Of a stretch of 32,000 nucleotides of DNA, positions 3,092-31,649 are shown one piece after another. The stretch is taken from assembly GCF_900167955.1 (NCBI RefSeq), contig NZ_FUYK01000001.1, positions 98,782 through 130,781 of the forward strand, given 5' to 3'. A program made the translations under genes and the position numbers. This DNA is from Candidatus Nitrosotalea bavarica. GTDB taxonomy: Archaea > Thermoproteota > Nitrososphaeria > Nitrososphaerales > Nitrosopumilaceae. Within the stretch, counting starts at the first letter, position 1; every line of letters starts with the position of its first letter. The notes below the pieces were generated by a model. The model made no database searches. It had not been told where the DNA came from and was given only the letters and a program-made list of their open reading frames with translations.

Positions 3092-3706
3092 TTTACTTAA
3101 TAATATTTTGATTGGTTTCCAACTCTTTCTGACAAAGACTGGAACATCCCCATTTTGAGATAGCCATTGTTTGATAAATCCCATAGTTTTAGAGTCAGAT
3201 GGGTACCCACTTCCAAGATCATGATTCTTTCGTAGTTTTTCAATCTCCCTATCCCTGTTTACTTTGGCAATAATTGATGCTGCGGAGACTACTGGGTATT
3301 TTTTATCGGCATGATGACTAGAGATAATTTTTCCAGTCTTGGCAATATTTGAGATATACAACCCAAATCGTTTGGGATTTACGTCACACGAGTCAACGTA
3401 CGAAGAACTTGCCCCAAGTTTTTTTATAACTTTAGCCATATAGTCTGCTTCAAGTTGGTTTAGCAGGTTTTTGTTGACATGTCTATCTATCGTTCTTGGT
3501 GGAATTTTTGCCACGTAATACGAATCCACTAGTGACAATATCTTATCATATAGATTTTCTCGCGATTTTGGGCTGAGTTGTTTTGAATCCTTGACTCCTA
3601 TTGCGGAAAGATGTTTTATCTTATTTCGCTCAATAGAAATTCCAGCTATAACAAGTGGACCCAAGACTGAACCTCGACCTGCGTCATCTACTCCGCAGAC
3701 TAGCAT
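3083..3706 (-). CDS. rnhB: Ribonuclease HII
   Basis: 207 aa. Motifs: GVDDAGRGSVLGPLVIAG, VKDSKQLSP, YVDSCD, HADKKYPVVSAASIIAKV. Confidence 0.9.
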   Translation of the reverse strand: MLVCGVDDAGRGSVLGPLVIAGISIERNKIKHLSAIGVKDSKQLSPKSRENLYDKILSLVDSYYVAKIPPRTIDRHVNKNLLNQLEADYMAKVIKKLGASSSYVDSCDVNPKRFGLYISNIAKTGKIISSHHADKKYPVVSAASIIAKVNRDREIEKLRKNHDLGSGYPSDSKTMGFIKQWLSQNGDVPVFVRKSWKPIKILLSKSS

Positions 3707-3755
3707 TTTAGTTATTCTTGCGTTAGATGTATTAAATCATTTTAGATAAGATAAG

Positions 3756-4889
3756 ATGTTGGAGTTTGACCTTGCTGAGATAGTAGAAGGAAGTACGAAG
3801 CTTCTAGTACCAAGAGATTCACTATCAGAAAAAACACCTCCAAAGGAACCAGCATTTTTTAATCCAAGGGCTAGAGTTAGTAGAGATTTTTCCATAATAG
3901 CATATTCTGCATTTCTTAAAAACTTCAAGGGTCCAAAGATCTTTTTGGATTCACTTGCAGGAATTGGTGCAAGAAGCATAAGAGTTGCAAATGAAATAAG
4001 TTCAATAGAAAAAGTTGTTGCAAATGATGTAAATGCTCAAGCCCTCGAGATTGGAAAAAGCATCGCAAAGGTAAATGGAGTAACAAATTGTGAGTTTTCT
4101 GAAAATGAGGCTTGTAGATTCCTAAGTCTTCATTCGTCAAGAGACGGACGTGGTGCAATTGTAGATGTAGATCCTTTTGGCTCACCTTCACGCTATCTGG
4201 ATTGTGCAATCAGAGCTACGTTTCATGGAGGGCTCTTGTCAGTTACTGCTACTGACCTGACTGTATTACATGGAATATTTCCAGAAGCATGCAAACGCAA
4301 GTATTATGGAACCCCAGTTAGAACCACATATGGAAATGAGATAGCATTACGACTTGTTCTCGGATGCATGAATCTCGTTGCAGGTAGAATGGATATCATG
4401 GTAGCACCATTATTTGTACAACATAGTATGCATTACTACAAGGCGTATGTCAAGATACTTGTTAGAACAAATACCAAAAATTGCATGGGATACATCCTAC
4501 ATTGTGATAATTGTGGTAACAGAAAAGTTGTACAGGAAGTTGAACACATATGCAATATCTGTAAATCAAAGGCAAAACTTGCAGGACCGCTTTGGATAGA
4601 TAATATGCAAGACAAGAATTTTGTAGATGCGATGATACCAGAAGAAGAAAACTTGAAGGTTGACAAGTCTTGTAAAATGTTCTTGGAAAAGTGTCAAGAA
4701 GAAGTAGGTATGCCACCTGCCTATTTTACCTTGGATGAGATAGGACATAGAAACCGGTCAGCCCCACCATCTCTAGATAAAATAATAGAAAAGATTCAAG
4801 GTATTGGACTAAGGGCTACAAAAACAAGTATGAATCCCACAGGGTTTAAGACTGATGCTAGAATTGACGAAATTTTATCTCTAGTTTAA
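3756..4889 (+). CDS. trm1: tRNA (guanine26-N2)-dimethyltransferase Trm1
   Basis: 377 aa. Motifs: FFNPRARVSRD, LDSLAGIGARSIRVANE, VDVDPFGSP, and the Cys cluster HCDNCGN...CNICKS typical of archaeal Trm1. Confidence 0.9.
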   Translation: MLEFDLAEIVEGSTKLLVPRDSLSEKTPPKEPAFFNPRARVSRDFSIIAYSAFLKNFKGPKIFLDSLAGIGARSIRVANEISSIEKVVANDVNAQALEIGKSIAKVNGVTNCEFSENEACRFLSLHSSRDGRGAIVDVDPFGSPSRYLDCAIRATFHGGLLSVTATDLTVLHGIFPEACKRKYYGTPVRTTYGNEIALRLVLGCMNLVAGRMDIMVAPLFVQHSMHYYKAYVKILVRTNTKNCMGYILHCDNCGNRKVVQEVEHICNICKSKAKLAGPLWIDNMQDKNFVDAMIPEEENLKVDKSCKMFLEKCQEEVGMPPAYFTLDEIGHRNRSAPPSLDKIIEKIQGIGLRATKTSMNPTGFKTDARIDEILSLV

Positions 4890-5482
4890 ATTCCAAGATA
4901 CCCTAAACAAACATAGTATAATTCACTACTAGATTTTCTGCTTGCTGAAGGTTTTCTTAGCTGAACTTTGGCAAACTTTTTTCGTATATAGTCTCTGAAT
5001 TCAATCGAATATTGACCATCAAATACTTTGAAGAGTGCGTTACCCTTTCGTGCCAAAACTTGGTCCATGATTTTACTTGCTGCATAGTTAAGAGAGATTT
5101 GTCTTCCATGGTCCACATCCCATTGTCCAGTAACTGTTGGTGATAGATCACAAATAACGGCATTAATTTTACCTCCAAAATACTCGAAAATTTGTTCTAC
5201 AACAGATTCGTCCTCAATGTCTCCCCTGATGATATGAACATCTTGAATTTCTTCTACAAATGCTTTGTCAATGCCCATAACTTGTCCTTTGTTTCCTGCA
5301 AGTTCTTTTGCAACTTGAGTCCATCCACCAGGGGAGCATCCCAAATCCAAAACAAAAAACCCAGGACCAATTATTCGATAAGAAGTGTTTAGTTCTTTTA
5401 GTTTGTATGCAGCTCTACTTCGATATCCTTCTTTGTGAGCTAGTCTTCTATACAAGTCACGCCTTGCATCAATTAACTTCAT
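4886..5482 (-). CDS. rlmE: 23S rRNA 2'-O-ribose methyltransferase RlmE/FtsJ
   Basis: Motifs: YRSRAAYKLKELN, VLDLGCSPGGWTQV, VICDLSP, FKVFDG. The ORF track starts at ATG 5521. I prefer ATG 5482, which forms an ATGA overlap with the stop of the upstream gene and gives MKLIDARRDLYRR. Confidence 0.85.
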   Translation of the reverse strand: MKLIDARRDLYRRLAHKEGYRSRAAYKLKELNTSYRIIGPGFFVLDLGCSPGGWTQVAKELAGNKGQVMGIDKAFVEEIQDVHIIRGDIEDESVVEQIFEYFGGKINAVICDLSPTVTGQWDVDHGRQISLNYAASKIMDQVLARKGNALFKVFDGQYSIEFRDYIRKKFAKVQLRKPSASRKSSSELYYVCLGYLGI

Positions 5483-6060
5483 TTCTTTACCTTCTTTGTA
5501 GAAATTTCGGTTAAAACCCATTGTTCAATCAAGGGACAAGTTCGTGGACTAATTTCTCCTTCAAGAGTACATTTTGATTCAACAGGACAAATTAGACATG
5601 GTGCTGATTCTATTGATTGTGTGGTTACTGGTACATGTGCAATCTTTAGTTTGTAAGTCCAACGACCGTTTTCAAGAATTTTTTCCCTTTTTACAAGATG
5701 TTGTCTCTCAAGCTTTAGTGCAAGCCTAGAACCATCTCTACTTGATAGTTTGAGTTTCTTCCAAAGTTCACTTTGGAACATGCCATTGTCTCCGCGTTTT
5801 GCAACCAAGCCTAAAACAGTTGTTTTTAATTTTTCCATATCCAGACCTTCTATCTGGAAGTTTTCTATCTCCTTTTCATCAATCTCTTCTTCTTCCTCTA
5901 AAAGTTCAGCCTCCTTTTTCAATTCAGCCTTGGTCTTTTTCTTTTCTGGTTTAGTAATTTCCTTTTTCTTTTCAGTCTTGACTACTTTCTTCTTTTCAGT
6001 CTTGGTTACTTCCTTCTTTTCTTCCATTTTTTTGATTGATTTTTTTTCTTTTTTAGCCAT
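5479..6060 (-). CDS. Winged-helix + Cys4 (Fe-S-type) protein, TFEbeta / RNAP III RPC34-like, with a Lys/Glu-rich N-terminal extension
   Basis: 193 aa. The N-terminal ~60 aa are KKE-type low complexity (KTEKKKVVKTEKKKEITKPEKKK). The central part looks like a wHTH (FQSELWKKLKLSSRDGSRLALKLERQHLVKRE). The C-terminus PCLICPVESKCTLEGEISPRTCPLIEQW matches the C-x2-C-x5-C-x11-C ... W pattern I recall for the RPC34/TFEbeta cluster domain. Confidence 0.55.
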   Translation of the reverse strand: MAKKEKKSIKKMEEKKEVTKTEKKKVVKTEKKKEITKPEKKKTKAELKKEAELLEEEEEIDEKEIENFQIEGLDMEKLKTTVLGLVAKRGDNGMFQSELWKKLKLSSRDGSRLALKLERQHLVKREKILENGRWTYKLKIAHVPVTTQSIESAPCLICPVESKCTLEGEISPRTCPLIEQWVLTEISTKKVKK

Positions 6061-6721: not shown

Positions 6722-8803
6722 ATGCGGCTTAGAAAATTTAGAGTGCAAGGTTATCGTTGCATTCATGATTCCGGCGAAATTAAAGTAGGAGATCTTGCGG
6801 CATTTGTAGGAAGAAATGAAAGTGGCAAAACTACGATTTTAGAAGCTCTTACATTGCTCAACAAGGACACAAAGGTTTCGGATTTAGATTTATGCGATGA
6901 AATGACTGAAGTTCTCAAGTCAGAAATAAAATTAGCTGAAGGAGAATTTGTACTAAATGAAAAGGAGACTTCATTAATTCGAGAAAAATTTCCAAATCTC
7001 CAAGACATAAAAAATATGAAGATTTACAGGACTAACAAAAATCCCAGAATACAATATGATTTTGGCGAAGTAAAAATCAGTGGCGAGGCAAGCAAGAGAC
7101 TCAACTCGTGGGAAAACTTTGTAGATAGAATCAAGTCATTTGTATTAGCTATGCCAAATCCTATACGAATTAGAGTAGACACCAAATTTCTAGATGCGCC
7201 TGCGCCACGAACACGTGAAGTCTTTATGGACATGATGGCTGAATTCAATAACAACATCTACCTGATTGCATCACAAGATCAACAAGTAATATCAGAGTGG
7301 AAGAACATCTACCAAGACCTAGAGAGCATATTTGATAATATGCTAATAGGAACAAACGAACGTTCAGCATTAGACAATTTCATTGAGGATAAACTACATC
7401 CTCGATTTGTTTACTTTTCAGACTACAAGAAGATACTTGGAAATATAGACTTGGAGGAATTTGTGAGAGAATCAAAGGGAATTAGAGCAAAAGGATTAGA
7501 ATATGTTGAAGAGTTTGACAAAGCAGAAACAGTCAACAATTTATTTTATTTGGCAGAGCTTGATGCCCAGAAGCTTGAAGAGGCGAAGAACAGTCCATCA
7601 AGACTTATAAAATTATTAAATATTTCAAGTAGAAGACTTAGTGAGAGACTCAATCCAGCATGGAAAGGAGATCCAATTCATGTCGAATTGAGATGGAATC
7701 CAGGAAATGTTTTGAGTGTAGTCATATCAGATGTTCACAAAGATGGTACCGTTACAAATACAGGACTGCTTAACAGAAGAGCTGAAGGATTCAAGTGGAC
7801 TTTTTCATTCATAGTAAATTTTGCTGCAGAAACACAAAAGGCAGAATTGAAAGAAGCAATATTATTACTTGATGAACCTGCCAGAAACTTACATCCTGCT
7901 CAACAGAGAGGAATTTCAGATCTGCTAAAGGGTCTAGCCGGTTCAAATCAAATATTGTATGCGACTCACTCACCTTTTATGATATTTGATTATACTCAAG
8001 GTAATCTGCTTGTAGTAGAGCTTGACAAGAGAAAACATCTAAGTAAGATCTATTATGACTACTGGAATGCCGACGATCAAACCCTCATTCCAATTTTATA
8101 CGGCCTTTCAAGAGGTCTTGTTGAATCCATAGTAGACAAGCAAATTGGTTTCAATTCAAGACCTGTGATAATAGTTGAGACCATGTCTGATTGTATGTAT
8201 CTAAATGCATTTGATAGATTCCTTAAGGATCCTAATCTATCCATGAATCCGCTCAACATAGTTCCAGCTTACAACAAGAACTCAGTTATGTCGCTTGCAA
8301 TATTTTATAAAAATCATGGATATGATACTTTCATTTTATTAGATAATACAGAAGAATCAAGAAAAATTTCTACAGAGCTTCAGTCAAATGAATTCAAGTC
8401 AGTCCAGATGATTTTCTTTGAACTTGCCGGACAACCAAGGCTATTCATAGAAGACCTTTTAGTAGATGAAGATTATCTTTATGCTGTAAACCAAACTTAT
8501 GAAGTAAAACTAAGAAAAGAAGGATATGTTACATTGACTAAAGATCAAGTATTAAGCAAAGGTAAGAAAAGCATACTGGATAACCTAAATGAGATTTGGA
8601 AAGAAAATCAACACCTAGGCTGGGAAAAGTTTGACAGAGAAGAAATTTGCAGATATATTTGTGAAAAAATGGTATTAGGTGAAACTGACTTTTTATCAGA
8701 TAAAACAAAGGACCAATTCAGGTCATTATATAGATTGATTGCTGAGAGAATAAGACAGAATCAAAACCTAGTATCCCAGACATCTACAACTTTTAGCAGA
8801 TAG
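6722..8803 (+). CDS. OLD-family-like ABC ATPase fused to a Toprim-like nuclease domain (stand-alone candidate defence protein)
   Basis: 693 aa. Walker A GRNESGKTT (res 30-38). About 310 aa of helical insertion. ABC-signature-like RRAEGFKWTFSF (res ~351-363). Walker B ILLLDEP (res 380-386). H-loop ATHSP (res 414-418). Then a Toprim-like region: VIIVETMSD (Glu486), FILLDNTEE (Asp541) and LFIEDLL (res 574-580). Confidence 0.65.
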   Translation: MRLRKFRVQGYRCIHDSGEIKVGDLAAFVGRNESGKTTILEALTLLNKDTKVSDLDLCDEMTEVLKSEIKLAEGEFVLNEKETSLIREKFPNLQDIKNMKIYRTNKNPRIQYDFGEVKISGEASKRLNSWENFVDRIKSFVLAMPNPIRIRVDTKFLDAPAPRTREVFMDMMAEFNNNIYLIASQDQQVISEWKNIYQDLESIFDNMLIGTNERSALDNFIEDKLHPRFVYFSDYKKILGNIDLEEFVRESKGIRAKGLEYVEEFDKAETVNNLFYLAELDAQKLEEAKNSPSRLIKLLNISSRRLSERLNPAWKGDPIHVELRWNPGNVLSVVISDVHKDGTVTNTGLLNRRAEGFKWTFSFIVNFAAETQKAELKEAILLLDEPARNLHPAQQRGISDLLKGLAGSNQILYATHSPFMIFDYTQGNLLVVELDKRKHLSKIYYDYWNADDQTLIPILYGLSRGLVESIVDKQIGFNSRPVIIVETMSDCMYLNAFDRFLKDPNLSMNPLNIVPAYNKNSVMSLAIFYKNHGYDTFILLDNTEESRKISTELQSNEFKSVQMIFFELAGQPRLFIEDLLVDEDYLYAVNQTYEVKLRKEGYVTLTKDQVLSKGKKSILDNLNEIWKENQHLGWEKFDREEICRYICEKMVLGETDFLSDKTKDQFRSLYRLIAERIRQNQNLVSQTSTTFSR

Positions 8804-8912
8804 AGCTGAAAAATATCAACATTTGTGCTTTGCTCATAAATCACATTATAATATAAGATGTAAAAGTATGATTTCTTATTAAGATTTAATTGAGAGATTA
8901 GTTTTTTAGTGT

Positions 8913-11138
8913 ATGAGTAAAGTGTTATTAAAATCAGTTATTCTTCTTGCCCTACTTCTCAGTAGTATCTTTACAACATATACAGTACAGCAAGTTAATG
9001 CATCTCCTACGTTTGTAACTGTAACTACTACAAACACTGGGGGAATGACCGTACTTTCTGTCAACAATAATGCAAACAGTACGTTAGATGTAGCTTCATT
9101 CATTTTGCAAATAAATGGTGGATCTTTCAAATCATTCAAGCTTGACAATGGTTGGGCAGGTATGAAAACTTCGTCAACCACCATTGCATTTAGTGCAATA
9201 GATCCACTAAAGCCTGGTAAATCAGCATCTTTCCAAATCAAAACAGACCAGCAGATACCCAGTATGACATGGAGTGCATCAGATACAAACAACATAGAAA
9301 TTGGTTCTGGCAATATAGGTACTCAAACACCTGGTAATACTCAAACACCTGGTAATACTCAAACACCTGGTAATACTCAAACACCTGGTAATACTCAAAC
9401 ACCTGGTAATACTCAAACACCTGGTAATACTCAAACACCTGGTAATACTCAGGTACAACAAACAGTACGAGGAATATTAGATACGTCAACATTTAGAATA
9501 ATTCCCTCAACTCCTGCAATAGGTGGCCATGTACGTGTAGTCGGTATTAGTTTTTCTTCATCAACTAACCTTGATTTGTACATAGGCAATGACAAGATAG
9601 GTTCATTTTCATCTAACGGTGATGGAAATTTTGTTACAACTCTCGTTATACCAAATTCTGAACAAGCAGGAAGTGTTGAATTTATTCTAAAGGATCAACA
9701 GGGTAATCAAAAATCATTTTCTACAAATCTCAAAGTATCACAACAACATGGCGGCAGTGTGATTCAAAACATTCCTTTAACAGTAAATTTTGATCCAATA
9801 TTTCACAGAGGAGAAACAAAAATAGTTTCAGGGACAGCAACTCCGGAATCCACTATAACTTTTACCATATCAGACTCTAATGGAAATTCAGTAACGACAT
9901 TGACTGCGCAGGCGGATAAAAATGGAAATTACGTATTAACCAGAAGCATACCTGTAGATGCAGCATTTGGAAAATACACTGTAACTATCTCAGACGGAAA
10001 AGATCAAGTCTCCAAAGGATTCAGCATTGTAACTACCCATCAGGTTTCAGTCTCAACGTCGTCACAAAAATATGACTCAGGGCAAACGGTTGTCATAAAC
10101 GGCACTTCAATTTCAAATCAGGTGGTAAGTTTCATTATTGCAGATCCTACAGGTATTCCAATTTATTCAAAAAGTGCAAATGTAACATCTGCCGGTACTG
10201 TCTCAGCATCATATCAATTACAAAACACTGCTATTGAAGGAACATATTCAATAACTGTAATTCAAGGTAATGATCAATCAGTACTTTACTTTGGAGTAGG
10301 AGTAGATCCATCCCCTCCCATAACAATGAATTTGGATAAACTCAGCTATTCAGATACTGATAAACCCCTCATTAGTGTAACAGGTCCTCCATCATCAACC
10401 CTTAATCTTATCATAATAGATCCATCAGACAAACAAAAGTTTTCGGATATTATTTCCTTAGGGGAACAGGGAGAGGCAACATATTCTTTTAATTTAACCT
10501 CATACACATCAGGCATTTATACAGCAGTAGTTACTCATGCAGATGAAAAAATCCAAAAAGACTTTGCAGTAGGTCTAGAGGTAGGTTCTGGAACGATTGT
10601 GCTCAATACAGTAAAGGACACATATCTACCAAGTGATGAAATTATAATTATTGGAACAACCAATTCAAATACTCTGCTCCAACTTTCTTTGACTGATCCT
10701 AATGGCATACTAGTAAAATCAATACAAACATTTGCAGATAAATCCGGTCACTTTTCTTCATTTGCTTTCAGTATACCATCTATTGCAACACCGGGAACAT
10801 GGAAACTTGATGCTACAAGTGGAATAAACCACGTATCCAAAAACATAATTGTAAAATCATCTACACAGGCAATCACTATTAAAGTAGACAGAGCCTCTGG
10901 CCTCTACACAAGAGGAGATATCATTGCAATCTCAGGAACTGATGCTGGTACTGACAATAACCTTAGTATCTCGATTGGAAACAGTGCTGGATCTATTGAC
11001 ACTTTAGAAACATCATCAACAAACAGAGGCGACTACACTACAGATTGGGTAGTTCCAAATGATATCAAGCCTGGAACATATACAATTGCGATATCGTCCC
11101 CCAATGGCAAATCCACTCTCAGCATAACGATTCAATAA
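8913..11138 (+). CDS. Secreted/surface protein with a signal peptide, a TQTPGN x7 linker and about six Ig-like (MG/CARDB-like) repeats
   Basis: 741 aa. N-terminus MSKVLLKSVILLALLLSSIFTTYTVQQVNA|SP. Recurrent ~90-aa modules follow the pattern [IV]xGT...xxxxI.D..G......A....G.....F.IP....G.Y.I..., for example ISGTATPESTITFTISDSNGNSV...GKYTVTISDG and IIGTTNSNTLLQLSLTDPNGILV...GTWKLDATSG. No C-terminal TM or sorting signal is visible. Confidence 0.7.
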   Translation: MSKVLLKSVILLALLLSSIFTTYTVQQVNASPTFVTVTTTNTGGMTVLSVNNNANSTLDVASFILQINGGSFKSFKLDNGWAGMKTSSTTIAFSAIDPLKPGKSASFQIKTDQQIPSMTWSASDTNNIEIGSGNIGTQTPGNTQTPGNTQTPGNTQTPGNTQTPGNTQTPGNTQTPGNTQVQQTVRGILDTSTFRIIPSTPAIGGHVRVVGISFSSSTNLDLYIGNDKIGSFSSNGDGNFVTTLVIPNSEQAGSVEFILKDQQGNQKSFSTNLKVSQQHGGSVIQNIPLTVNFDPIFHRGETKIVSGTATPESTITFTISDSNGNSVTTLTAQADKNGNYVLTRSIPVDAAFGKYTVTISDGKDQVSKGFSIVTTHQVSVSTSSQKYDSGQTVVINGTSISNQVVSFIIADPTGIPIYSKSANVTSAGTVSASYQLQNTAIEGTYSITVIQGNDQSVLYFGVGVDPSPPITMNLDKLSYSDTDKPLISVTGPPSSTLNLIIIDPSDKQKFSDIISLGEQGEATYSFNLTSYTSGIYTAVVTHADEKIQKDFAVGLEVGSGTIVLNTVKDTYLPSDEIIIIGTTNSNTLLQLSLTDPNGILVKSIQTFADKSGHFSSFAFSIPSIATPGTWKLDATSGINHVSKNIIVKSSTQAITIKVDRASGLYTRGDIIAISGTDAGTDNNLSISIGNSAGSIDTLETSSTNRGDYTTDWVVPNDIKPGTYTIAISSPNGKSTLSITIQ
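9321..9451. repeat. Perfect 18-bp tandem repeat, 7 full copies plus 5 nt (actcaaacacctggtaat), encoding (TQTPGN)7
   Basis: Unit starts counted at 9321, 9339, 9357, 9375, 9393, 9411 and 9429, with a partial unit at 9447. No mismatches. In frame with the 8913 ORF from residue 137. Confidence 0.95.
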
Positions 11139-15869: not shown

Positions 15870-17679
15870 TTCCCATCCTTATCAGTTGATTATAATTTGG
15901 TTCTTTTTTCTTACCAGCAAGTTCAGTTGCAAATTGTGCAATTAGTGGTACATATTTTGAGTAAAGATTCGCCCTCTTTTTTGCCATATCATCTGCTCCT
16001 TTTCTAGACATATGAACAGCCAATTTTCTTGCAAGATATTGTAACGCATTTTTTAATTCCCTTTCAAGCTCAGGTCTATCTGCCACATTTTCTTTTCCTA
16101 CTGTCTTGTACGGAATTCTTGTAGAGCAAATATGAGATACAATCACAAGAGGAGGATCTCCTTTTATTTTGTATCTACTCCACTCAGTCTCATTTACTAT
16201 TTTGAGGACTACATCACTTCCTTCATCATATAGAAGCGGTATACGATTAGCAAAACGATAAACTTTGAGACCAGATGGTGGAATATCACCTCCATAGGCA
16301 ATGCCCATTTCTACAACAAATGGAAATCCAGAATATGCTGATGCGTTACGTTGCCAGACAGCTGCAAACTCGGGATTGAAAAACTTCATTATTCCTTTAG
16401 AAAGAGGTTCCTCCCCTAAAGGGGCCAAGCAACTGGGATCTGGAGCAAGGAATTCTTCAAATTTTTGGAGTGCGTCAGCTAGTTTTACCAACTCCTCATT
16501 TGTCATACTGCCTATTCTTTTATCTGGCTTGAATTTGGCAAAATCACAGAACTTTTCTGCGGTAGTGGGTCCAACCCTTTGGAATCGCTTGGTCAAAAAG
16601 GTGAGGAGTGTATCACCCTGAACGGTACTTGCAAGTTGTTTGTAATATGGACTCTCTGGGTCCAATTCTATTGCATGTGTTTGAGACTCGCCAAAGTCCC
16701 AGTATGTTATAGTCTTATTAGCAATATCAATATCATCGATTCTGATTTTTTTCAATCCTTCAAAATCAATATTTAGAAAAGACATGACCGAAATCACAGT
16801 TCTTACAGGTTTTGAGATATCAGACCAACGCTTTTGTGCTTTTTCTAAAATCTCTTTGTGAGAGAGGTTTTTCTTTAGACCTAATTCTTTTTTGACTTTA
16901 TCAATCATCTTGTTGTCAATGGTTGGAATCTGATAATGCGTATCTGTGATCATTCTTCTTATAGTCTCAACATCAATACCGTGCGGATGAGGTTTGATGA
17001 CTGTCGGTGGATGAGGCATATCTTTTACAATTCTTGGATAATGGAATTTTTCACCACTTGGATCTTCAAATGTTATTGATGCGTAGGGGGTAATCAGCGA
17101 AGTCTGATATACATAATCGCGTACTTTGGATCCTGCTTTTGAATAATCTCCTTCAAGAACAATACTCACTGCAAGACCTGTCTTTGAACCTTCTTTTGTT
17201 GTATGTTTTAGAATTACAGGTTTGTTTTTCTGAATGTCAAGTAACATTACAAACTCGTCAAGTGTTTTACCATCTGAGCAGCTCTTCACAGTAACTGGTT
17301 TGTTTGTAGTAATCTGACCATAAAGAATAGCCATTGTAGCACCAAGACCAAACATACCTCTAGCTTGCTTGAGACCAAATTTAGAACCATAAAGAACAGT
17401 ACCAAAAGCAAGAGGAATGTGTTCAGGATCAATACCTGGCCCGTTATCTTTTACAGTCAAGACATAATGTTTTGGATCTGGTTTTTCTGCATCTACTGCT
17501 TTTATTGAAAGATGAATGTCTGGAAGGATCTTCTTTTGATCACATGCATCAAGTGCATTTTCTACAAATTCTCTAACAGATGTGTAAAGTGATCTAGTTG
17601 GATTACTAAATCCCGCAAGATCTCTATTTCTATAAAAGAATTCACTTGGAGATATTTGGCTGAAGACTTCTTTACTCAA
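15847..17679 (-). CDS. top6B: DNA topoisomerase VI subunit B (GHKL ATPase)
   Basis: 610 aa with a TTG start. Bergerat-fold motifs: REFVENALDA, KDNGPGI, GMFGLGATMA. Confidence 0.92.
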   Translation of the reverse strand: MSKEVFSQISPSEFFYRNRDLAGFSNPTRSLYTSVREFVENALDACDQKKILPDIHLSIKAVDAEKPDPKHYVLTVKDNGPGIDPEHIPLAFGTVLYGSKFGLKQARGMFGLGATMAILYGQITTNKPVTVKSCSDGKTLDEFVMLLDIQKNKPVILKHTTKEGSKTGLAVSIVLEGDYSKAGSKVRDYVYQTSLITPYASITFEDPSGEKFHYPRIVKDMPHPPTVIKPHPHGIDVETIRRMITDTHYQIPTIDNKMIDKVKKELGLKKNLSHKEILEKAQKRWSDISKPVRTVISVMSFLNIDFEGLKKIRIDDIDIANKTITYWDFGESQTHAIELDPESPYYKQLASTVQGDTLLTFLTKRFQRVGPTTAEKFCDFAKFKPDKRIGSMTNEELVKLADALQKFEEFLAPDPSCLAPLGEEPLSKGIMKFFNPEFAAVWQRNASAYSGFPFVVEMGIAYGGDIPPSGLKVYRFANRIPLLYDEGSDVVLKIVNETEWSRYKIKGDPPLVIVSHICSTRIPYKTVGKENVADRPELERELKNALQYLARKLAVHMSRKGADDMAKKRANLYSKYVPLIAQFATELAGKKKEPNYNQLIRMGSEIEEQV

Positions 17680-18244
17680 GGATATTTCCTCCTTCCCAAA
17701 GTTGAAGTCTCTCTAGTTTTTGTCTCCTCCTTGATTCTTGAAGATCATTGTAAACTTTACCATGAGTACTACCACTGGAAATAGATGTTATTGCATTAAC
17801 AGCAGATTTTAGTTGAGTTCCATCCCCAATCAAGGCAACGGTTCTACCATAAACAGATACTTTTGCACCACTTAGATCCTCTATATTTTTTCTAACTCGT
17901 CCACTTTCTCCTATTATTCTACTCTTTATTCTCTCAATTTGAGCCGGAGATTTTCCAACAAATTGACGCAAGTCCATAACATGTAATGAAGTCTCTTCTT
18001 GAATAAGACGTAATGCATTTTCTGCAGAGAAGCCACGACCTATAGCCATTACAATTTCTTCGGCCTTAAATGGCATTATATTTTCAACATCCCCCACTCC
18101 CTTTATGACTGTCTCGCCTGTTTGACCATCGATTGATAATGAAACAGAACAAATTTTTTCTATCTTAGCTTTTACCTTTCCAGATTTACCAATCAACACC
18201 CCAACTCGATCAACTGGGATCAGTATAATTTTCTCAAAGATCAT
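17672..18244 (-). CDS. KH-domain RNA-binding protein (aDim2/Pno1-like)
   Basis: 190 aa. Two KH GxxG loops (VGVLIGKSGKVKAKIE, IIGESGRVRKNIE). Lies downstream of Rio1 with a 4-nt overlap, the conserved archaeal aIF1A-Rio1-KH arrangement. Confidence 0.8.
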   Translation of the reverse strand: MIFEKIILIPVDRVGVLIGKSGKVKAKIEKICSVSLSIDGQTGETVIKGVGDVENIMPFKAEEIVMAIGRGFSAENALRLIQEETSLHVMDLRQFVGKSPAQIERIKSRIIGESGRVRKNIEDLSGAKVSVYGRTVALIGDGTQLKSAVNAITSISSGSTHGKVYNDLQESRRRQKLERLQLWEGGNILE

Positions 18245-19200
18245 CTTGTAACCCTCTTAAACACATCAATTGGATTGTCCACCGTTAGTCCTCTCTTAAC
18301 AAAGAATTTAGTAATATTACTAATATCTCTTTCAAGAAATTCTTTGGTTTTAGGATGTCTTATATCTACCGCAGAGCCAAAATCAAAAACTACTGGTCCT
18401 TCTTTTGTTTTGAAAAGATTATACTCTGAAAGATCTGCGTGAACAAGTTCGGCTTTTTTATAGAGATCAGAAATAATTGTTATTGTTTTTTCATAATCAG
18501 TATAGTCTACTTCTGATTCAACCAATGTCTTAGATGGAACACCGCCAGTTCCTACAAATTTCATTACTAGAATATTTTTTACCACGGTTATTGGTTCAGG
18601 ACATGGGATTTCACAATTAAAGGCCTTACTCAGATTACGGAATTCTTTTCTAGCCCACAACTCTACAAGAGATCTAGTACCGCTTTTTATTCTAGTAAAC
18701 CTTGGATCTCCAATAAGGTAAGGATATCGCTTTTTAAAGTTCGATGTTGTAACGAGATAAATTTTTACAGCAAGATCATTGCCAAATGGGTCAACTGCCC
18801 AGTATAGCTGAGACTCTTTTCCCGCACCTACTGCACCATTGACATAAGAGATAATGCCATTGTTGATCAGCCGTGAGAGGGTCATCACAGTAGACTTGTC
18901 AAAGACTGCCTCGAGCACTTTGTCTTTGTCAAATATGTCCTTCTCTGTTTTTCTTCCTCTTGCCTTACCAGCAAGTTTAAGATTCATTTTTCTTGCCAAT
19001 TTGTCTTGTAGTCCTAAATCAGAATCTTCAGTGCTGGAATCTTCTTCGACATCACTTGTTGTTTCTGGTGAATCTAGATCACTTTCTTCAACTTCACTTG
19101 TTATTTCTGGTGAGTCTAGATCACTTTCTTCTGCAATCTGTAGGTCATTTTCATCCTCAATCACTTCATCATCAAATTCATCTATAGATTCTTTATTCAT
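18241..19200 (-). CDS. rio1: RIO-type serine protein kinase (Rio1-like) with an acidic repeat-containing N-terminus
   Basis: 319 aa. Motifs: NGAVGAGKESQLYWA (ATP loop), LVHADLSEYNLF (catalytic loop), VFDFGSAV (metal-binding loop). No N-terminal wHTH, hence Rio1 rather than Rio2. Confidence 0.85.
   Translation of the reverse strand: MNKESIDEFDDEVIEDENDLQIAEESDLDSPEITSEVEESDLDSPETTSDVEEDSSTEDSDLGLQDKLARKMNLKLAGKARGRKTEKDIFDKDKVLEAVFDKSTVMTLSRLINNGIISYVNGAVGAGKESQLYWAVDPFGNDLAVKIYLVTTSNFKKRYPYLIGDPRFTRIKSGTRSLVELWARKEFRNLSKAFNCEIPCPEPITVVKNILVMKFVGTGGVPSKTLVESEVDYTDYEKTITIISDLYKKAELVHADLSEYNLFKTKEGPVVFDFGSAVDIRHPKTKEFLERDISNITKFFVKRGLTVDNPIDVFKRVTR
19045..19131. repeat. Imperfect 42-bp tandem duplication encoding EESDLDSPE(I/T)TS(E/D)V x2 in the Rio1 N-terminus
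   Basis: tcacttgtt[g/a]tttctggtga[a/g]tctagatcactttcttc appears twice, 42 nt apart. Protein residues 25-38 and 39-52 are near-identical. Confidence 0.8.
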
Positions 19201-19260
19201 TTTATTTTACTCCTATAGACAACATTAATTGTAAAACAAACTTTGTAAAATCTATTACTA

Positions 19261-19572
19261 TCAGAAATCTTGCGGCAAGAGTCCTTTTTGTTTTAGTATA
19301 TCAACTTGTGAGAGGGTATATCTCCAAGTAATATCACCACGATCCTCTGCTCTAAAATCCCAGGGGGCAATTGTTACAACATCATTATCTCTAATCCAAA
19401 TTTTTCTTTTTAGTTTTCCTCTGATTCGTCCCATTCTGGTCTTATCATCTGTACATCTAACCAGTATGTGATCACTGCCCAAAAGTTTTACAACTCTACC
19501 TAACAGCTCGCCTTCTCCAGGCAAATACATTTCTTTTAACTCACTTTCGTTTAGTACTTTTCGCTTACCCAA
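19261..19572 (-). CDS. eif1a: Translation initiation factor aIF-1A
   Basis: 103 aa with a TTG start. S1/OB core: GRVVKLLGSDHILVRCTDDKTRMGRIRGKLKRKIWIRDNDVVTIAPWDF. Confidence 0.9.
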   Translation of the reverse strand: MGKRKVLNESELKEMYLPGEGELLGRVVKLLGSDHILVRCTDDKTRMGRIRGKLKRKIWIRDNDVVTIAPWDFRAEDRGDITWRYTLSQVDILKQKGLLPQDF

Positions 19573-19619
19573 AATTCTCAGACAACAGAGTGTTCAGTAT
19601 GTATATATTCGTTGTATTT

Positions 19620-19916
19620 TCAAAATTTGAAAATAATAAGAAATGGAATTCCTTCAATTTCTTTTACACCTTTTGCTGTTCCCACTCCAATCTTTATTGA
19701 AAGATCAACTGTTTTTCTACCAGCCATGTTAATTATTGAAGAACTTCTTAGAAGAGATTCTGCTTCTTTTTCATCAACCACTCGGTCTCCATAGTAGCTC
19801 TTTGAGATTTTTACCTCAAAATCAGATTGTTTGAGTGTTCTGCCAACTAATTCGGCATCACACATATTCAACATCCTATTTCTTTGCTGATTCACTACTC
19901 TCACTGCAAAATTCAT
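19620..19916 (-). CDS. DUF424-family protein
   Basis: 98 aa. The pattern MLNMCDAELVGRTL......ISKSYYGD..V...EA..LL....IINMAGRKTV matches my recollection of DUF424. Its start directly abuts the aIF2beta stop (0-nt gap), a common archaeal pairing. Confidence 0.65.
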   Translation of the reverse strand: MNFAVRVVNQQRNRMLNMCDAELVGRTLKQSDFEVKISKSYYGDRVVDEKEAESLLRSSSIINMAGRKTVDLSIKIGVGTAKGVKEIEGIPFLIIFKF

Positions 19917-20339
19917 TTACGCATATTGACCCTTTAGAGGAGATTTGGCTCCGCAGGCTTCACATTTGAGAGAAGTTACCCTATGCTCCTTTTCAACCCT
20001 AGTATCAGGACTCTTACAGGTTGGACATTCTACATATTCCTTAAGATATCTATTCAAACGAATTGTAAATTCATGAGGGTCTTTCTTCCCTACAAATACT
20101 GCCTTGTCACCTCCAAATTGTGCCGGAGTTGCAAATTCCTTTGATAAATACTGGAGAAGCTTCTCAGGATCTCTTCGCAATATTTTTGGAAATTCTGAAA
20201 AGTTTCTGAAAAATGTTCTGTTTCCCTGCCACATTATATCCACTTTAGGAAGTTCAAATCTGGATGTAGAACCTGCTTGAATCTGAGATACTTTATCTTG
20301 TATCCCCTTCAATAATTTTTCATATTCTGCCTTTGTCAA
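19917..20339 (-). CDS. eif2b: Translation initiation factor aIF-2 beta subunit
   Basis: 140 aa with a TTG start. Motifs: NRTFFRNFSEF, LNRYLKEYVECPTCKSPDT ... LKCEACGA (C4 zinc ribbon). Confidence 0.9.
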   Translation of the reverse strand: MTKAEYEKLLKGIQDKVSQIQAGSTSRFELPKVDIMWQGNRTFFRNFSEFPKILRRDPEKLLQYLSKEFATPAQFGGDKAVFVGKKDPHEFTIRLNRYLKEYVECPTCKSPDTRVEKEHRVTSLKCEACGAKSPLKGQYA

Positions 20340-28427: not shown

Positions 28428-28504
28428 ATCACTCACAGAAAATATTTTCCTATAAAAGACTTGCACAGTACTAACATTACTATTGCTACCTCAACTGGTT
28501 GATT

Positions 28505-28606
28505 TTACGCTACCCAACCGCCACATGAAATGCAGATTTGCATCCCATCTTCGTCTTCATATGTTTCTCCACCAGGAGGACATTGGCATTGTGATACTTC
28601 GTCCAT
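28505..28606 (-). CDS. Possible 33-aa Cys-rich micro-ORF (CxC...CxxC), speculative
   Basis: Hand translation: MDEVSQCQCPPGGETYEDEDGMQICISCGGWVA, from ATG 28606 to TAA 28507..28505. It is antisense to the implausible N-terminal extension of the tsaC ORF. Confidence 0.3.
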   Translation of the reverse strand: MDEVSQCQCPPGGETYEDEDGMQICISCGGWVA

Positions 28607-28680
28607 CAGATATAATATGCATTCCAACTTATATCATTTTCATAAGAAGAGATAATTTACTATTAAACACCCAAAGAAAT

Positions 28681-29271
28681 ATGATTCTTCCTTGCAATGA
28701 AAGTGGAATTAAAGCTGCACATGATGCCATAAAAAAAGGAGGAGTTGTGGTATTTCCTACGGATACAGTTTATGGAGTAGGATGCGATCCATACAATCAG
28801 GATGCAATTAACAAAATATACAATATCAAAGGTAGGGATAAAACAAAACAGCTTCCCGTTCTTGCATATTCAAAAAAAGAGATAAAAGATATAGCGTATT
28901 TTGACGAAAATTCAGAAAAAATCTCAGATAAATTCTGGCCTGGTTCCCTTACATTAATTCTAAAAGTCAAGGACAAGAAAATTGAAGAGTCATTGGGTCT
29001 TCAAGGTAAGATTGCAGTCAGAGTTCCAAATCATCCATGCGTGCTTGCTCTTTTAAAAGAATGCAAATTACTGGTAGGAACTAGCGCAAATTTTTCTGGC
29101 CAGTCCTCATTTAACGATTCAAGTGAGATAGCAAGCAAATTCTCAGGCTATGATATATTGTTAGATGGAGGAAAAATTGTCAATTCGGGAGAATCTACAA
29201 TAGTACAGTTCGAAGGTAATGAGTTAAAAATAGTAAGAGAAGGTAAAATAAAATCGGAGTCTTTAGTTTGA
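28681..29271 (+). CDS. tsaC: L-threonylcarbamoyladenylate synthase, YrdC-domain-only (TsaC-type)
   Basis: Motifs: GGVVVFPTDTVYGVGCDP, IKGRDKTKQLPVL, FWPGSLTLIL, VRVPNHP, GTSANFSGQ. The track ORF starts at TTG 28483, but residues 1-66 are non-homologous Cys/His/Ile-rich junk. ATG 28681 gives 196 aa. Confidence 0.85.
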   Translation: MILPCNESGIKAAHDAIKKGGVVVFPTDTVYGVGCDPYNQDAINKIYNIKGRDKTKQLPVLAYSKKEIKDIAYFDENSEKISDKFWPGSLTLILKVKDKKIEESLGLQGKIAVRVPNHPCVLALLKECKLLVGTSANFSGQSSFNDSSEIASKFSGYDILLDGGKIVNSGESTIVQFEGNELKIVREGKIKSESLV

Positions 29272-29789
29272 ATTTGATTACAACCTGTAGTAGACACATG
29301 GAGGAGGAAGCGTGTGATGAAATTGCAGAAATTATTAAGGAACTTGGAGATACATCTCCAAGAATAGGCAAGTCAAGTTTCTCAGGAATAGTTTGGGTTG
29401 ACACTATAATCGATCCATTTGTTGTCATAGCAGAGATAAAAAAAATAACCCTTGATGAACCATGGAGAATGAGGTATTGTCACAGATTCATTCCAATTAG
29501 ACAATCCACTTCGTCTAGTCTTGAAAACATAGTAGAAAGTGTGAGAAACCAAATAAAAATAATGAAAGATACAGATGCATACAGAATTACAATTGAAAAA
29601 AGAGGCTCAGATATTTCCTCAAAGGAGCTAATAGATTCAGTTGCAGGAATAATTCCAAACAAGGTGTCTCTAGAGTCCTATGACTGGAATGTCATGATTC
29701 AGATCATGGGTGGGATAACAGGCATTTCAATACTAAAAGAAGAGGATATTGTCAGTACGTTAAAGCTCAAACGAGATTCAATGGAATAG
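29268..29789 (+). CDS. Stand-alone THUMP-domain RNA-binding protein
   Basis: 173 aa. The TTG start overlaps the tsaC stop by 4 nt. N-terminus LITTCSRHMEEEACDEIAEIIKELGD, then SGIVWV, ...RFIPI..., ...YRITIEKRG... . This is the layout of small archaeal THUMP proteins as I recall them. Confidence 0.65.
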   Translation: MNLITTCSRHMEEEACDEIAEIIKELGDTSPRIGKSSFSGIVWVDTIIDPFVVIAEIKKITLDEPWRMRYCHRFIPIRQSTSSSLENIVESVRNQIKIMKDTDAYRITIEKRGSDISSKELIDSVAGIIPNKVSLESYDWNVMIQIMGGITGISILKEEDIVSTLKLKRDSME

Positions 29790-30557
29790 TGTTGCAGACT
29801 TTTCTGCAAGTAAATCTTCCAAGGGCGTTTTAGAAAACACACAATCAAGTTGCTTTTTTGTTATTCTAAATTCTTTTTTTATCAATTTGGAATTATCTTT
29901 TGAAAATACATTGTCTTGCAAAAGATCTTTAATGTGATTGTAGAGTTTTTCAATCAGTGATTTTTTCCCAATTATTATCAATATAGAATCGGTGTTCTTT
30001 TTTACACCTACTTTAGAGATTGCATCACTAATTTGCCTAGTACATGCAAATCTCATTAGAATATCAGTCTCAATTTTATTAGAAAGTAAGGTGCCTGCCT
30101 TTTGAGCAGATAAAGAAATAGCAACTGTCTTTTGTACATGTTCTACATTCAAGACATATGACGCCCCAATTCCCTGGATGACAAGATTTGGATATCGCTC
30201 TCTAAGTGACTCGATAAATGTAATTGGATCTTCTGCAGTTTTTTTGAGTCGGACTAACTCTATAATATTTTTCATCAGACCAAATTGGATCCTCTTTGAT
30301 CTTCCACCATGAACTAACGGAATTATACTAATGACATCTCCACCTTTTAGTAAAGTCTCTTTTCCTTGCAATGCAGATGAATCAATGCCATTTACTGCAA
30401 CAAGGATATTGTTAGGATCAAGGTGTGGTAGATTGCTAGGAGTAGATTTTTCAAGATGGTCTAGTAGATCAGATATTGTCATAAGGTCACTTTCAATCTC
30501 AAGTTTATCAGATGAAAATGACTTTCTTGCTCCTCCCAGTAACTTGACAGTTAGCAT
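29778..30557 (-). CDS. cgi121: Fusion protein: N-terminal ubiquitin-like beta-grasp (MoaD/ThiS/SAMP-like, ending in Gly-Gly) + C-terminal Cgi121 (KEOPS subunit)
   Basis: 259 aa. Residues 1-85, MLTVKLLGGARKSF...ISDLLDHLEKS...ILVAVNGIDSS...LLKGGDVISIIPLVHGG, have the canonical MoaD/ThiS shape with a terminal-type GG at 84-85 (nt 30303-30308). Residues ~95-259 parallel archaeal Cgi121: VIQGIGASYVLNVEHVQKTVAISLSAQKAGTLLSNKIETDILMRFACTRQISDAISKVGVKK...ILIIIG. Confidence 0.7.
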   Translation of the reverse strand: MLTVKLLGGARKSFSSDKLEIESDLMTISDLLDHLEKSTPSNLPHLDPNNILVAVNGIDSSALQGKETLLKGGDVISIIPLVHGGRSKRIQFGLMKNIIELVRLKKTAEDPITFIESLRERYPNLVIQGIGASYVLNVEHVQKTVAISLSAQKAGTLLSNKIETDILMRFACTRQISDAISKVGVKKNTDSILIIIGKKSLIEKLYNHIKDLLQDNVFSKDNSKLIKKEFRITKKQLDCVFSKTPLEDLLAEKSATLFH

Positions 30558-30601: not shown

Positions 30602-30862
30602 CTAGTTGAGTATCTGCTCTTCAATCTCTTCAGTCTCATCAACTGGTTCGTTGTGAGCAACTGCTTCAGATTCTTTTTCTTGTTTCGCCTCAAGTTCTCG
30701 TTTGATATATGTAGAAATGTAACCAGCAATTTCGTTCTTGAGACCTTTAGATCTTACAATTGCAACTTCATTTAGAACCTGTTTGTTGTGTGCAAAATCT
30801 TTGTCAAATTTTCCTTTATAAGTAGTCATCAATTCCAGGGAAATTTTTCTGATTCTGTTCAC
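30602..30862 (-). CDS. rps17e: 30S ribosomal protein S17e with an acidic C-terminal extension
   Basis: 86 aa with a GTG start. IRKISLELMTTYKGKFDKDFAHNKQVLNEVAIVRSKGLKNEIAGYISTYIKR matches the eS17 core. The tail is EAVAHNEPVDETEEIEEQILN. Confidence 0.85.
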   Translation of the reverse strand: MNRIRKISLELMTTYKGKFDKDFAHNKQVLNEVAIVRSKGLKNEIAGYISTYIKRELEAKQEKESEAVAHNEPVDETEEIEEQILN

Positions 30863-30893: not shown

Positions 30894-31649
30894 CTATACA
30901 CCGAGGTATGAACTAGCATTCTTTTCTGCAATTAGATGCATTTCATCATATGATTTGTTCAATATCCCAGCTGCACAAAAAAGCACACTAGGTAGAAATG
31001 TTATTTGTGCGGTTTTCAGACCAAAGCATCTTGAGAACCTCACAGGTCCATCAGTCTCAAGCAGTATTTTATCCAAGTCGGTCAGTGCAAGAAGAACTTG
31101 CTTGTCTTGAGAATAAACCATCGCAGGTCCATATGATACAAAGTAGTCCAGTTCCATTGCTTTTTGTAATTGCTTTTTGCTGCCAGAAAACCAATGAAGT
31201 AAAACACCTTTGATCGAATAAGATGGAAGTATAGAAAATATCTCATCCAGAGTTTTTCTAGAATGAACAGATATAGGTTTTCCTAATTTTTCTGCAAGTG
31301 AGAGCATCTCTTGGAATACTAATACTTGTCTTGAAAATCCTGCTTCGTCTGAAACATACGTTTTGTCAAGACCAATCTCTCCGATACCAGATATTTTATT
31401 TGAATTATTCCCAATCAACTCTACCATTGCATTTAGATCATCATCTGCCTTTTCAGGATGAATTCCAATAAATGGTAAAACCAGAGGACTGCGTTTACTT
31501 AGTTCAAGTGTAGATTTTGAGGTTGTATTATCCATAGAAACACAACATGCTTTGATCTTCAATCTATCCATGGCTACAAGTATGTACTCCAAGTCAGCCA
31601 AGTACTCAGGGTCTGATAGATGAATATGAGCATCAGTCAGCCAGGTCAT
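30894..31649 (-). CDS. tatD: TatD-family metal-dependent hydrolase
   Basis: 251 aa. Motifs: TDAHIHL, IGEIGLD, ISVHSR, VLLHWFSG, LLETDGP. Confidence 0.85.
   Translation of the reverse strand: MTWLTDAHIHLSDPEYLADLEYILVAMDRLKIKACCVSMDNTTSKSTLELSKRSPLVLPFIGIHPEKADDDLNAMVELIGNNSNKISGIGEIGLDKTYVSDEAGFSRQVLVFQEMLSLAEKLGKPISVHSRKTLDEIFSILPSYSIKGVLLHWFSGSKKQLQKAMELDYFVSYGPAMVYSQDKQVLLALTDLDKILLETDGPVRFSRCFGLKTAQITFLPSVLFCAAGILNKSYDEMHLIAEKNASSYLGV

Follow-up and report, generated by a model that had tools for sequence, protein, structure and literature searches.

Fusions that join a protein of the MoaD or SAMP type to MoaE through a Gly-Gly (GG) motif have been found to be cut at the junction. In Mycobacterium tuberculosis, MoaX is cut between Gly82 and Ser83, a step required for its function (PMC4326299), a Deinococcus MoaD-MoaE fusion is cut by DRJAMM (PMC8832034), and a linear SAMP1-MoaE fusion is cut in vivo by the archaeal HvJAMM1 into active subunits (PMC4443979). 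Makarova and Koonin described in 2010 a fusion of a ubiquitin-like (Ubl) domain to a different partner, the KEOPS subunit Cgi121, as conserved in Thaumarchaea; they noted its probable co-transcription with S17, a parallel to the S17-Urm1 linkage in Sulfolobales, and suggested either regulation of KEOPS by SAMPylation or a coordinated function (PMC2948915). Here we analyse the Ubl-Cgi121 fusion gene of Candidatus Nitrosotalea bavarica, which lies on a 32,000-nucleotide stretch of contig NZ_FUYK01000001.1 (positions 98,782 to 130,781 of the forward strand; assembly GCF_900167955.1), hereafter the window. From sequence comparison and by analogy with MoaX and SAMP1-MoaE, we propose, at a probability of roughly 0.5, that the fusion is a precursor cut, at least in part, after Gly85 by a JAMM-type protease.

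The fusion itself has been known since 2010 and stands in database annotation, which answers a question left by an earlier note on this DNA, made from its letters alone, of whether it had been catalogued (it had, in PMC2948915). What is new here is the invariance of a His-Gly-Gly (HGG) motif at the junction compared with a variable linker, the low confidence of this motif in a structural model, and the occurrence of split forms, tailed free forms and HCS forms, whose junction reads STLHCSAF. Neither cleavage, GG conservation, split forms nor a GG-less lineage is discussed in the 2010 text (PMC2948915), and we found no later literature that takes up the thaumarchaeal Ubl-Cgi121 fusion; two recent papers on archaeal KEOPS are silent on it.

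The coordinates that the earlier note gave for the gene are exact, and the gene runs on the minus strand. It is divided as follows.

29778..30557, minus strand: whole Ubl-Cgi121 fusion gene, an open reading frame (ORF) of 259 aa with an ATG start; stop codon 29778-29780
30303..30557, minus strand: Ubl domain, residues 1-85, a ThiS/MoaD/Urm1-type beta-grasp ending IIPLVHGG (Pfam ThiS, NCBIfam, PDB profile search, Foldseek)
30303..30311, minus strand: His83-Gly84-Gly85 motif, codons CAT GGT GGA; a Ubl C-terminal motif, internal here, with the proposed cut after G85
30294..30302, minus strand: linker, residues 86-88, Arg-Ser-Lys (RSK), variable in sequence and length among homologues
29781..30293, minus strand: Cgi121 domain (tRNA-recruiting subunit of KEOPS), residues 89-259 (NF011465, Foldseek, CCA-contact residues)

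Across the junction, the translation of the ORF reads ...GGDVISIIPLVHGG and continues directly as RSKRIQFGLMKNIIELVRL...; the junction-spanning tryptic peptide of the uncut chain, derived from the sequence, is GGDVISIIPLVHGGR. The GG is not the C-terminus of the translated chain, since 174 residues follow G85 in the same ORF, and its exposure would therefore need proteolysis.

The fusion is not a product of sequencing or assembly. At 100% identity, the window protein matches the entry 'KEOPS complex subunit Cgi121 [Candidatus Nitrosotalea bavarica]', the identical protein is held in NCBI, JGI, Logan and UniRef, and both domains had already been annotated by NCBI and JGI. A survey of its spread, as suggested in the earlier note, returned 895 homologues at E<=1e-5 and, in a scan of one genome per GTDB species, relatives encoded in 279 species-level genomes, which is well past anything that chance would give. 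Locus counts given below refer to the best 80 of these 279 genomes (Nitrosotalea, Nitrosopumilaceae, Nitrosarchaeum and Marine Group I), which include the complete chromosome LN890280.1. Matches cover both domains in 80/80 of them, and the frame is uninterrupted across the HGG junction at every one of the 80 loci. The earlier note had named three things that would undo its reading of the locus, and none of them applies: an N-terminal part that is no beta-grasp, a C-terminal part that is not like Cgi121, and a frameshift joining two separate genes. A few metagenomic contigs do carry split versions, but we give next to no credence to the idea that a frameshift from sequencing or assembly, or the loss of a stop codon, joined adjacent Ubl and Cgi121 genes here: the unbroken frame, the identical database proteins and the same architecture published for N. 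maritimus and C. symbiosum (PMC2948915) rule it out. As a separate observation, one locus from Ca. Nitrosotalea sp. TS (L080:4001-4778, NZ_RCMB01000009.1) has a frameshift within the Ubl, near residue 55 and not at the junction, which is either a draft-assembly error or a sign that the Ubl half has been pseudogenised.

The N-terminal domain is a complete Ubl. Residues 4-85 match the whole Pfam ThiS profile (PF02597, positions 1-76/76; E 2.3e-12, 47.7 bits against a cut-off of 22.5), and since the profile is matched to its last position, the C-terminus of the family coincides with G85. Matches to the NCBIfam models moaD_arch, Urm1_like and SAMP1 likewise all end at residue 85, and G84-G85 align to the last profile positions of all four models. 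In a sequence-profile search of the PDB, the best match of the Ubl was Trypanosoma Urm1 (2k9x, E 1.6e-8), followed by Thermoplasma Ta0895 (2g1e), Sulfolobus Urm1 (4wwm) and yeast Urm1 (2ax5); because Urm1 ranks first, the domain is best described as Urm1-like. An AlphaFold2 model built on a 51-sequence alignment (identity down to 28%) gave every 10-residue block from 1 to 80 a mean predicted local distance difference test score (pLDDT) of at least 87, and a Foldseek search of the PDB recovered, for this domain, SAMP1 (2l52), Urm1 (2k9x and 4wwm), MoaD (5mpo and 1fm0) and CysO. Six residues are invariant across the 51 aligned fusions: N56, G57, D74, H83, G84 and G85. The earlier note's view that residues 1-85 form a full MoaD/ThiS/SAMP-type Ubl ending in GG is borne out by the ThiS hidden Markov model, AlphaFold and Foldseek alike, and its view that the chain then runs on into Cgi121 by NF011465, Pfam CGI-121 and Foldseek matches to solved Cgi121 chains.

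The junction combines an almost unchanging motif with a highly changeable sequence. H83-G84-G85 is present in 41/42 full-length fusions of <=56% identity to the window protein, and HGG stands at the expected place in 171 of the 176 distinct sequences of at least 225 aa. Of the other five, three lack part of the N-terminus, one is no fusion and only one truly departs from the motif; among full-length or nearly full-length fusion proteins covering the junction, the motif is found in 171/172. The most divergent fusions (P0203 and P0227) read 'AAHGG'. Nowhere is the protein less conserved than just past the GG: mean column entropy is 2.83 for residues 86-103, compared with 1.80 for the Ubl and 2.15 for Cgi121. 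Linker length varies across homologues from about 3 residues, as here, to about 70, the longest being low-complexity linkers of ~70 residues (P0169, P0187, P0178 and P0189, the last from Nitrososphaera sp.). In the 171 HGG sequences, the residue following the GG (P1') is K, S, R, A, G, N, I, T, Q, E, M or D, mostly one of the first five and never proline, and this absence would count for cleavage.

The main rival to a cleaved precursor, one that we consider a genuine but distinctly minority possibility, is that the Ubl is a permanent adaptor. It would stay on Cgi121 and give KEOPS a module for contacts with proteins or RNA, one that could dock an E1-like enzyme, an Ncs6-type thiolase or the proteasome near KEOPS-bound tRNA, or could modulate Bud32/Kae1, and the GG would be retained because it acts as a hinge or belongs to a binding epitope. 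The higher average conservation of the Ubl than of Cgi121 fits an interaction surface, and the unbroken frame, in all 80 loci and in divergent lineages, also speaks for a lasting attachment; a permanent adaptor leaves unexplained, however, why anything from 3 to 70 low-complexity linker residues is tolerated.

The structural model is compatible with an accessible junction. Mean pLDDT of the AlphaFold2 model was 93.6, and the only residues below 50 were 83-85 (HGG), which in the model marks what would be an exposed, flexible junction. The predicted TM-score (pTM) of 0.68 corresponds to two confident domains whose mutual orientation is undefined. This bears on a special case of the cleavage model, in which cutting serves as a regulated switch: in the uncut fusion, Cgi121/KEOPS would be inactive or would differ in its activity, and a JAMM cut would activate it depending on conditions. 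A precedent is the covalent SAMP1-MoaE state, which is inhibitory and is reversed by HvJAMM1 (PMC4443979), and with the Ubl only ~3 residues from the first Cgi121 beta-strand, a steric effect on KEOPS assembly is conceivable. We nevertheless find such a switch improbable, as the placement of the Ubl relative to the Bud32- and tRNA-binding faces is undefined at this pTM, and variants with long linkers would dilute steric inhibition.

Relatives in which the two modules are apart carry the argument furthest. Gene fissions 2-5 codons past the GG, with synteny unchanged, occur in loci L086, L087, L088 and L089. At one of them (L086, GCA_005240025.1; 3741-4516), a Ubl ending ...IIPIIHGGNK overlaps, by ATGA, a 171-aa Cgi121. 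Two others, from independent samples (L088:1561-2402 and L089:1584-2425), read ...HGGEI and two stop codons, then an 83-nt spacer and a 164-aa Cgi121; in the remaining one (L087:1492-2266), ...HGGYIEN and a stop are accompanied by Cgi121 in the +1 frame, which may be real or an assembly error. Both halves of the split genes still match their own families, and these natural fissions indicate that the Ubl and Cgi121 modules function as separate polypeptides. Some Nitrososphaeraceae, Ca. Nitrosopolaris among them, have as their S17e-linked orthologue a free Ubl of 89 aa, 40% identical to the window Ubl domain and ending HGGNNNEL or HGGSQKDV, and other related free Ubls terminate exactly at HGG. 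No Cgi121 adjoins the free Ubl, which ends HGGNNNEL here, at the Nitrososphaeraceae loci L001-L003, considering the locus only; the convergent neighbours there (L001:4756-9223, GCA_019246625.1; L002; L003) are an unannotated 137-aa protein, a class-I lysyl-tRNA synthetase (LysRS) and Elp3.

Since HGG is equally conserved with 174, 2-5 or 0 residues after it, and the sequence past the GG is variable, these comparisons point to a free glycine carboxylate and a trimming peptidase. That the motif is kept whether or not anything is attached to it favours a canonical C-terminal function and, as far as sequence can tell, implies that the clade possesses such a peptidase. Equal HGG conservation across the fused, split and free states is the strongest argument for cleavage that the sequences appear to offer, and it does not fit a hinge: a permanent adaptor would leave unexplained why the motif is as invariant in split and free orthologues with 0-5 residues behind it, and the covalent tether is evidently dispensable in the fission lineages. 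To our knowledge, permanently integrated ubiquitin-like domains of eukaryotic proteins are, moreover, usually without GG, which also speaks against the adaptor. On its side, fusion occurring beside fission implies that the two modules are linked, functionally or physically.

Taken together, the invariant HGG, the hypervariable linker, the fissions past the GG and the short tails lean, at the level of sequence, towards a precursor cut after Gly85. Cleavage, the protease, E1 activation and the thiolation target are things that we infer, and the scheme may be outlined as follows. The Urm1/SAMP-like Ubl (1-85) and Cgi121 (89-259) would be translated as one chain from the S17e operon, and a JAMM/MPN+ metalloprotease would cut this chain after Gly85, at least partly. 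One product would be a ~9-kDa Ubl whose ...HGG carboxylate is free and could be adenylated and thiocarboxylated by an E1-like enzyme for tRNA thiolation (probably 2-thiouridine at position 34, s2U34), for protein conjugation, or for both. The other would be a normal-sized Cgi121 that binds the tRNA 3'-CCA end and might bring ANN-decoding tRNAs to Kae1/Bud32/Pcc1 for synthesis of threonylcarbamoyladenosine at position 37 (t6A37). The purpose of the fusion might then be co-expression of two anticodon-loop modification functions at fixed stoichiometry, possibly with gating. A link to s2U34 thiolation of tRNA-Lys(UUU), also a t6A substrate, is one that we only infer, by analogy with the established biology of Urm1/SAMP2 and, weakly, from the Elp3 and LysRS neighbours of the free Nitrososphaeraceae Ubl.

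Several points weigh against a precursor cut after Gly85. No report of cleavage in a thaumarchaeon came to light in the literature, and Pfam scanning of essentially every ORF of at least 80 aa found no E1-like or JAMM gene in the 32-kb window, to which this search was confined. The Ubl lies under every NCBIfam subfamily cut-off (34 vs 49.5 bits for moaD_arch, 25.5 vs 70 for Urm1_like and 20.1 vs 60 for SAMP1), and at sequence level its subfamily, whether Urm1_like, SAMP1 or MoaD, and its partner are not assigned. Retention of the fusion in hundreds of species also fits a need for a covalent tether. Finally, a cluster of proteins from Nitrososphaerota metagenome-assembled genomes (P0208; loci L091:1839-2573 and L092:629-1363) keeps the fusion and the S17e/THUMP/Sua5 synteny with the junction STLHCSAF, without GG and almost without a linker, and 9 full-length members, taken from independent samples, all share this junction. 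Judged from sequence, this lineage shows that an apparently uncleavable and non-activatable Ubl domain is tolerated and that attachment independent of GG is viable; it also supports a permanent adaptor, as the fused, GG-less domain is kept under selection. The STLH of this lineage resembles the STLHGG C-terminus of eukaryotic Urm1.

The wider Ubl system can be gauged from two relatives, N. maritimus and C. symbiosum, for which the supplementary table of PMC2948915 gives the following numbers per genome.

2 MoaD-type Ubls (the Cgi121 fusion and a Ubl-E1 fusion)
0 members of the ThiS or URM1 arCOGs
1 E1-like enzyme
2 JAB/MPN+ proteases
3-5 rhodaneses
1 arCOG00042 PP-loop ATPase (Ncs6-type)
0 PAN
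0 molybdenum-cofactor genes

In the published alignment, the Ubl-E1 fusion (N. maritimus GI 161529056) keeps AGG at about residue 92, at the domain boundary (PMC2948915). With the GG internal in both Ubls, both C-termini are blocked in the primary translation product of these two species. A role of the MoaD-type Ubl in molybdopterin synthesis is rejected, as MoaA, MoaB, MoaC, MoaE, MoeA and MobA are all absent from N. maritimus and C. symbiosum (PMC2948915). Because the other beta-grasp Ubl is fused to E1, the Cgi121 fusion may further supply most of the free Urm1-like modifier and sulfur carrier in the cell. The gene would then encode a polyprotein resembling a ubiquitin precursor, from which JAMM would release the Ubl after Gly85 in a step coupled to KEOPS maturation, so that t6A37 and Ubl-dependent tRNA thiolation or urmylation would be supplied, and possibly regulated, from one chain; this extended form of the proposal we hold tentatively, at somewhat below even odds.

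The Cgi121 half most likely has, by sequence, the role that it has elsewhere, namely binding the tRNA CCA end and recruiting substrate to KEOPS. Residues 104-257 match the NCBIfam Cgi121 equivalog NF011465 (E 1.8e-35, 122.3 bits vs 40) and residues 120-238 match Pfam CGI-121 (PF08617; E 3.4e-13, 50.4 bits vs 25). In the AlphaFold2 model, the domain opens with a beta-hairpin at residues 90-104, and Foldseek matched it to twenty Cgi121 chains, drawn from the KEOPS complexes of archaea, yeast, plants and humans, at 0.63-0.73 in target-normalised TM-score (8up5_C at E 7e-9; also 7kjt_H, 3enh_C, 4ww7_B and 3enp). In M. jannaschii Cgi121 (mjCgi121), Gln71 and Ile72 make contact with the CCA tail of tRNA, and activity requires Ile72 (PMC7718258). 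In a profile alignment, these residues correspond to Q175 and I176 of the window protein, of which the former is invariant in the family alignment and the latter at least 90% conserved; Lys56 and Met60 of mjCgi121 align with N160(/K161) and T164 and are not identical.

The fusion gene sits in a fixed order of neighbours, with a divergent histone gene, TatD, S17e and the fusion on one strand, and THUMP, Sua5 and a winged-helix regulator convergent to them. The immediate neighbours in the window are these.

30602..30862, minus strand: ribosomal protein S17e, 44 nt upstream of the fusion (Pfam and NCBIfam)
30894..31649, minus strand: TatD-family hydrolase, upstream of S17e (Pfam)
29268..29789, plus strand: stand-alone THUMP-domain protein of 173 aa, convergent (Pfam THUMP E 1.2e-4, above cut-off)
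28681..29271, plus strand: short, YrdC-only Sua5/TsaC threonylcarbamoyl-AMP (TC-AMP) synthase (PF01300 E 3.9e-53; TIGR00057 173.8 bits vs 123.2)

Counting loci with enough flank, S17e lies upstream on the same strand in 78/78 and is probably co-transcribed with the fusion gene, THUMP is convergent in 76/76 and Sua5 in 74/74, and TatD lies upstream on the same strand in 72 of 75. Members at <=33% identity keep the arrangement, some with genes inserted between S17e and the fusion or without the THUMP/Sua5 pair. The 3' ends of the THUMP and fusion genes overlap by 12 nt (29778-29789), both stop codons included. The likely start of Sua5 is Met67 of the listed ORF 28483..29271, giving ~196 aa compared with 197-199 aa in orthologues, and the TTG at 28483 is probably spurious; the Sua5 stop overlaps the THUMP start. 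Sua5 catalyses the first step of t6A synthesis and produces TC-AMP, the substrate of KEOPS, and the gene context therefore agrees with a working t6A function. In a high-GC lineage (L093:4778-6703, minus strand), Sua5 and THUMP form one 641-aa ORF (Sua5_yciO_yrdC at 206-378, THUMP at 568-624). The conserved pair and its fused form suggest THUMP as a partner that binds tRNA for the TC-AMP synthase, possibly in place of the missing SUA5 C-terminal domain.

Elsewhere, the window is rich in genes of translation and RNA modification, at positions 1114-5521 and 17672-20339 (Nop5, fibrillarin, RNase HII, Trm1, an FtsJ-type methyltransferase, a KH-domain protein, RIO1 kinase, eIF1A, DUF424 and eIF2-beta). 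There is no KEOPS subunit among these genes, and the RIO1 kinase is not Bud32. An odd pair among the housekeeping genes lies at 6722-11138, where a 741-aa protein carrying MG2 and FlgD-Ig domains comes after a 693-aa AAA_15/AAA_21 ATPase, whose family is common in systems of defence or of the toxin-antitoxin type.

A cut at the Gly-Gly would mean that ammonia-oxidising archaea produce a Urm1-like modifier as a fusion precursor, by the logic of eukaryotic ubiquitin and tied to a universal tRNA-modification complex. This would provide an experimentally accessible link between the anticodon-loop modifications t6A37 and s2U34, and an archaeal JAMM substrate other than molybdopterin synthase. In a chain that always stays whole, the Ubl would count as a new accessory domain of KEOPS. 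For either reading, the series of fused, split, tailed-free and GG-less forms offers natural controls.

The closest known system is the fusion described by Makarova and Koonin (N. maritimus GI 161528937, 257 aa; C. symbiosum GI 118195088), which has the same architecture and neighbourhood. Its order in N. maritimus is TatD-like (272 aa), S17e (129 aa) and fusion (257 aa), with convergent THUMP (173 aa), Sua5 (198 aa) and helix-turn-helix (95 aa) genes; the window gene is the Nitrosotalea orthologue and differs in species only, at ~50% identity to the Nitrosopumilaceae-type sequences. Canonical archaeal Cgi121 (M. jannaschii MJ0187; PDB 3enh, 7kjt, 8up5) shares the fold at a target-normalised TM-score of 0.68-0.71, and its CCA-binding helix motif R-x5-Q-I-xx-A-I is kept in the window protein, but identity is only ~21% and the window protein carries an 88-residue N-terminal extension (Ubl and linker). 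MoaX, the D. radiodurans MoaD-MoaE fusion and the engineered H. volcanii SAMP1-MoaE resemble it in having an N-terminal Ubl of ThiS/MoaD fold with GG at the junction to the partner. In these fusions, the Ubl carboxylate is freed only by a cut after the GG, made by a JAMM/MPN+ protease, whereas in the window protein the cut is only predicted; their partner is MoaE rather than Cgi121, and the thaumarchaea in the 2010 table are without molybdenum-cofactor biosynthesis.

Urm1 (of eukaryotes and of Sulfolobales, 4wwm) and the haloarchaeal SAMPs share the beta-grasp ending in ...HGG, and both serve as sulfur carriers and as protein modifiers. They are free-standing, with the GG as their true C-terminus, whereas the GG of the window protein is internal; the Sulfolobales Urm1 gene adjoins S17e, as the window fusion does (PMC2948915). 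Eukaryotic Ub-eL40, Ub-eS31 and polyubiquitin offer the nearest parallel in design, a ubiquitin-fold module at the N-terminus joined through GG to an unrelated protein of the translation machinery. The window Ubl, in contrast, belongs to the ThiS/Urm1 family and not to ubiquitin, its partner is a tRNA-modification subunit, and the cysteine deubiquitinase of the eukaryotic precursors would have its counterpart here in a putative JAMM protease.

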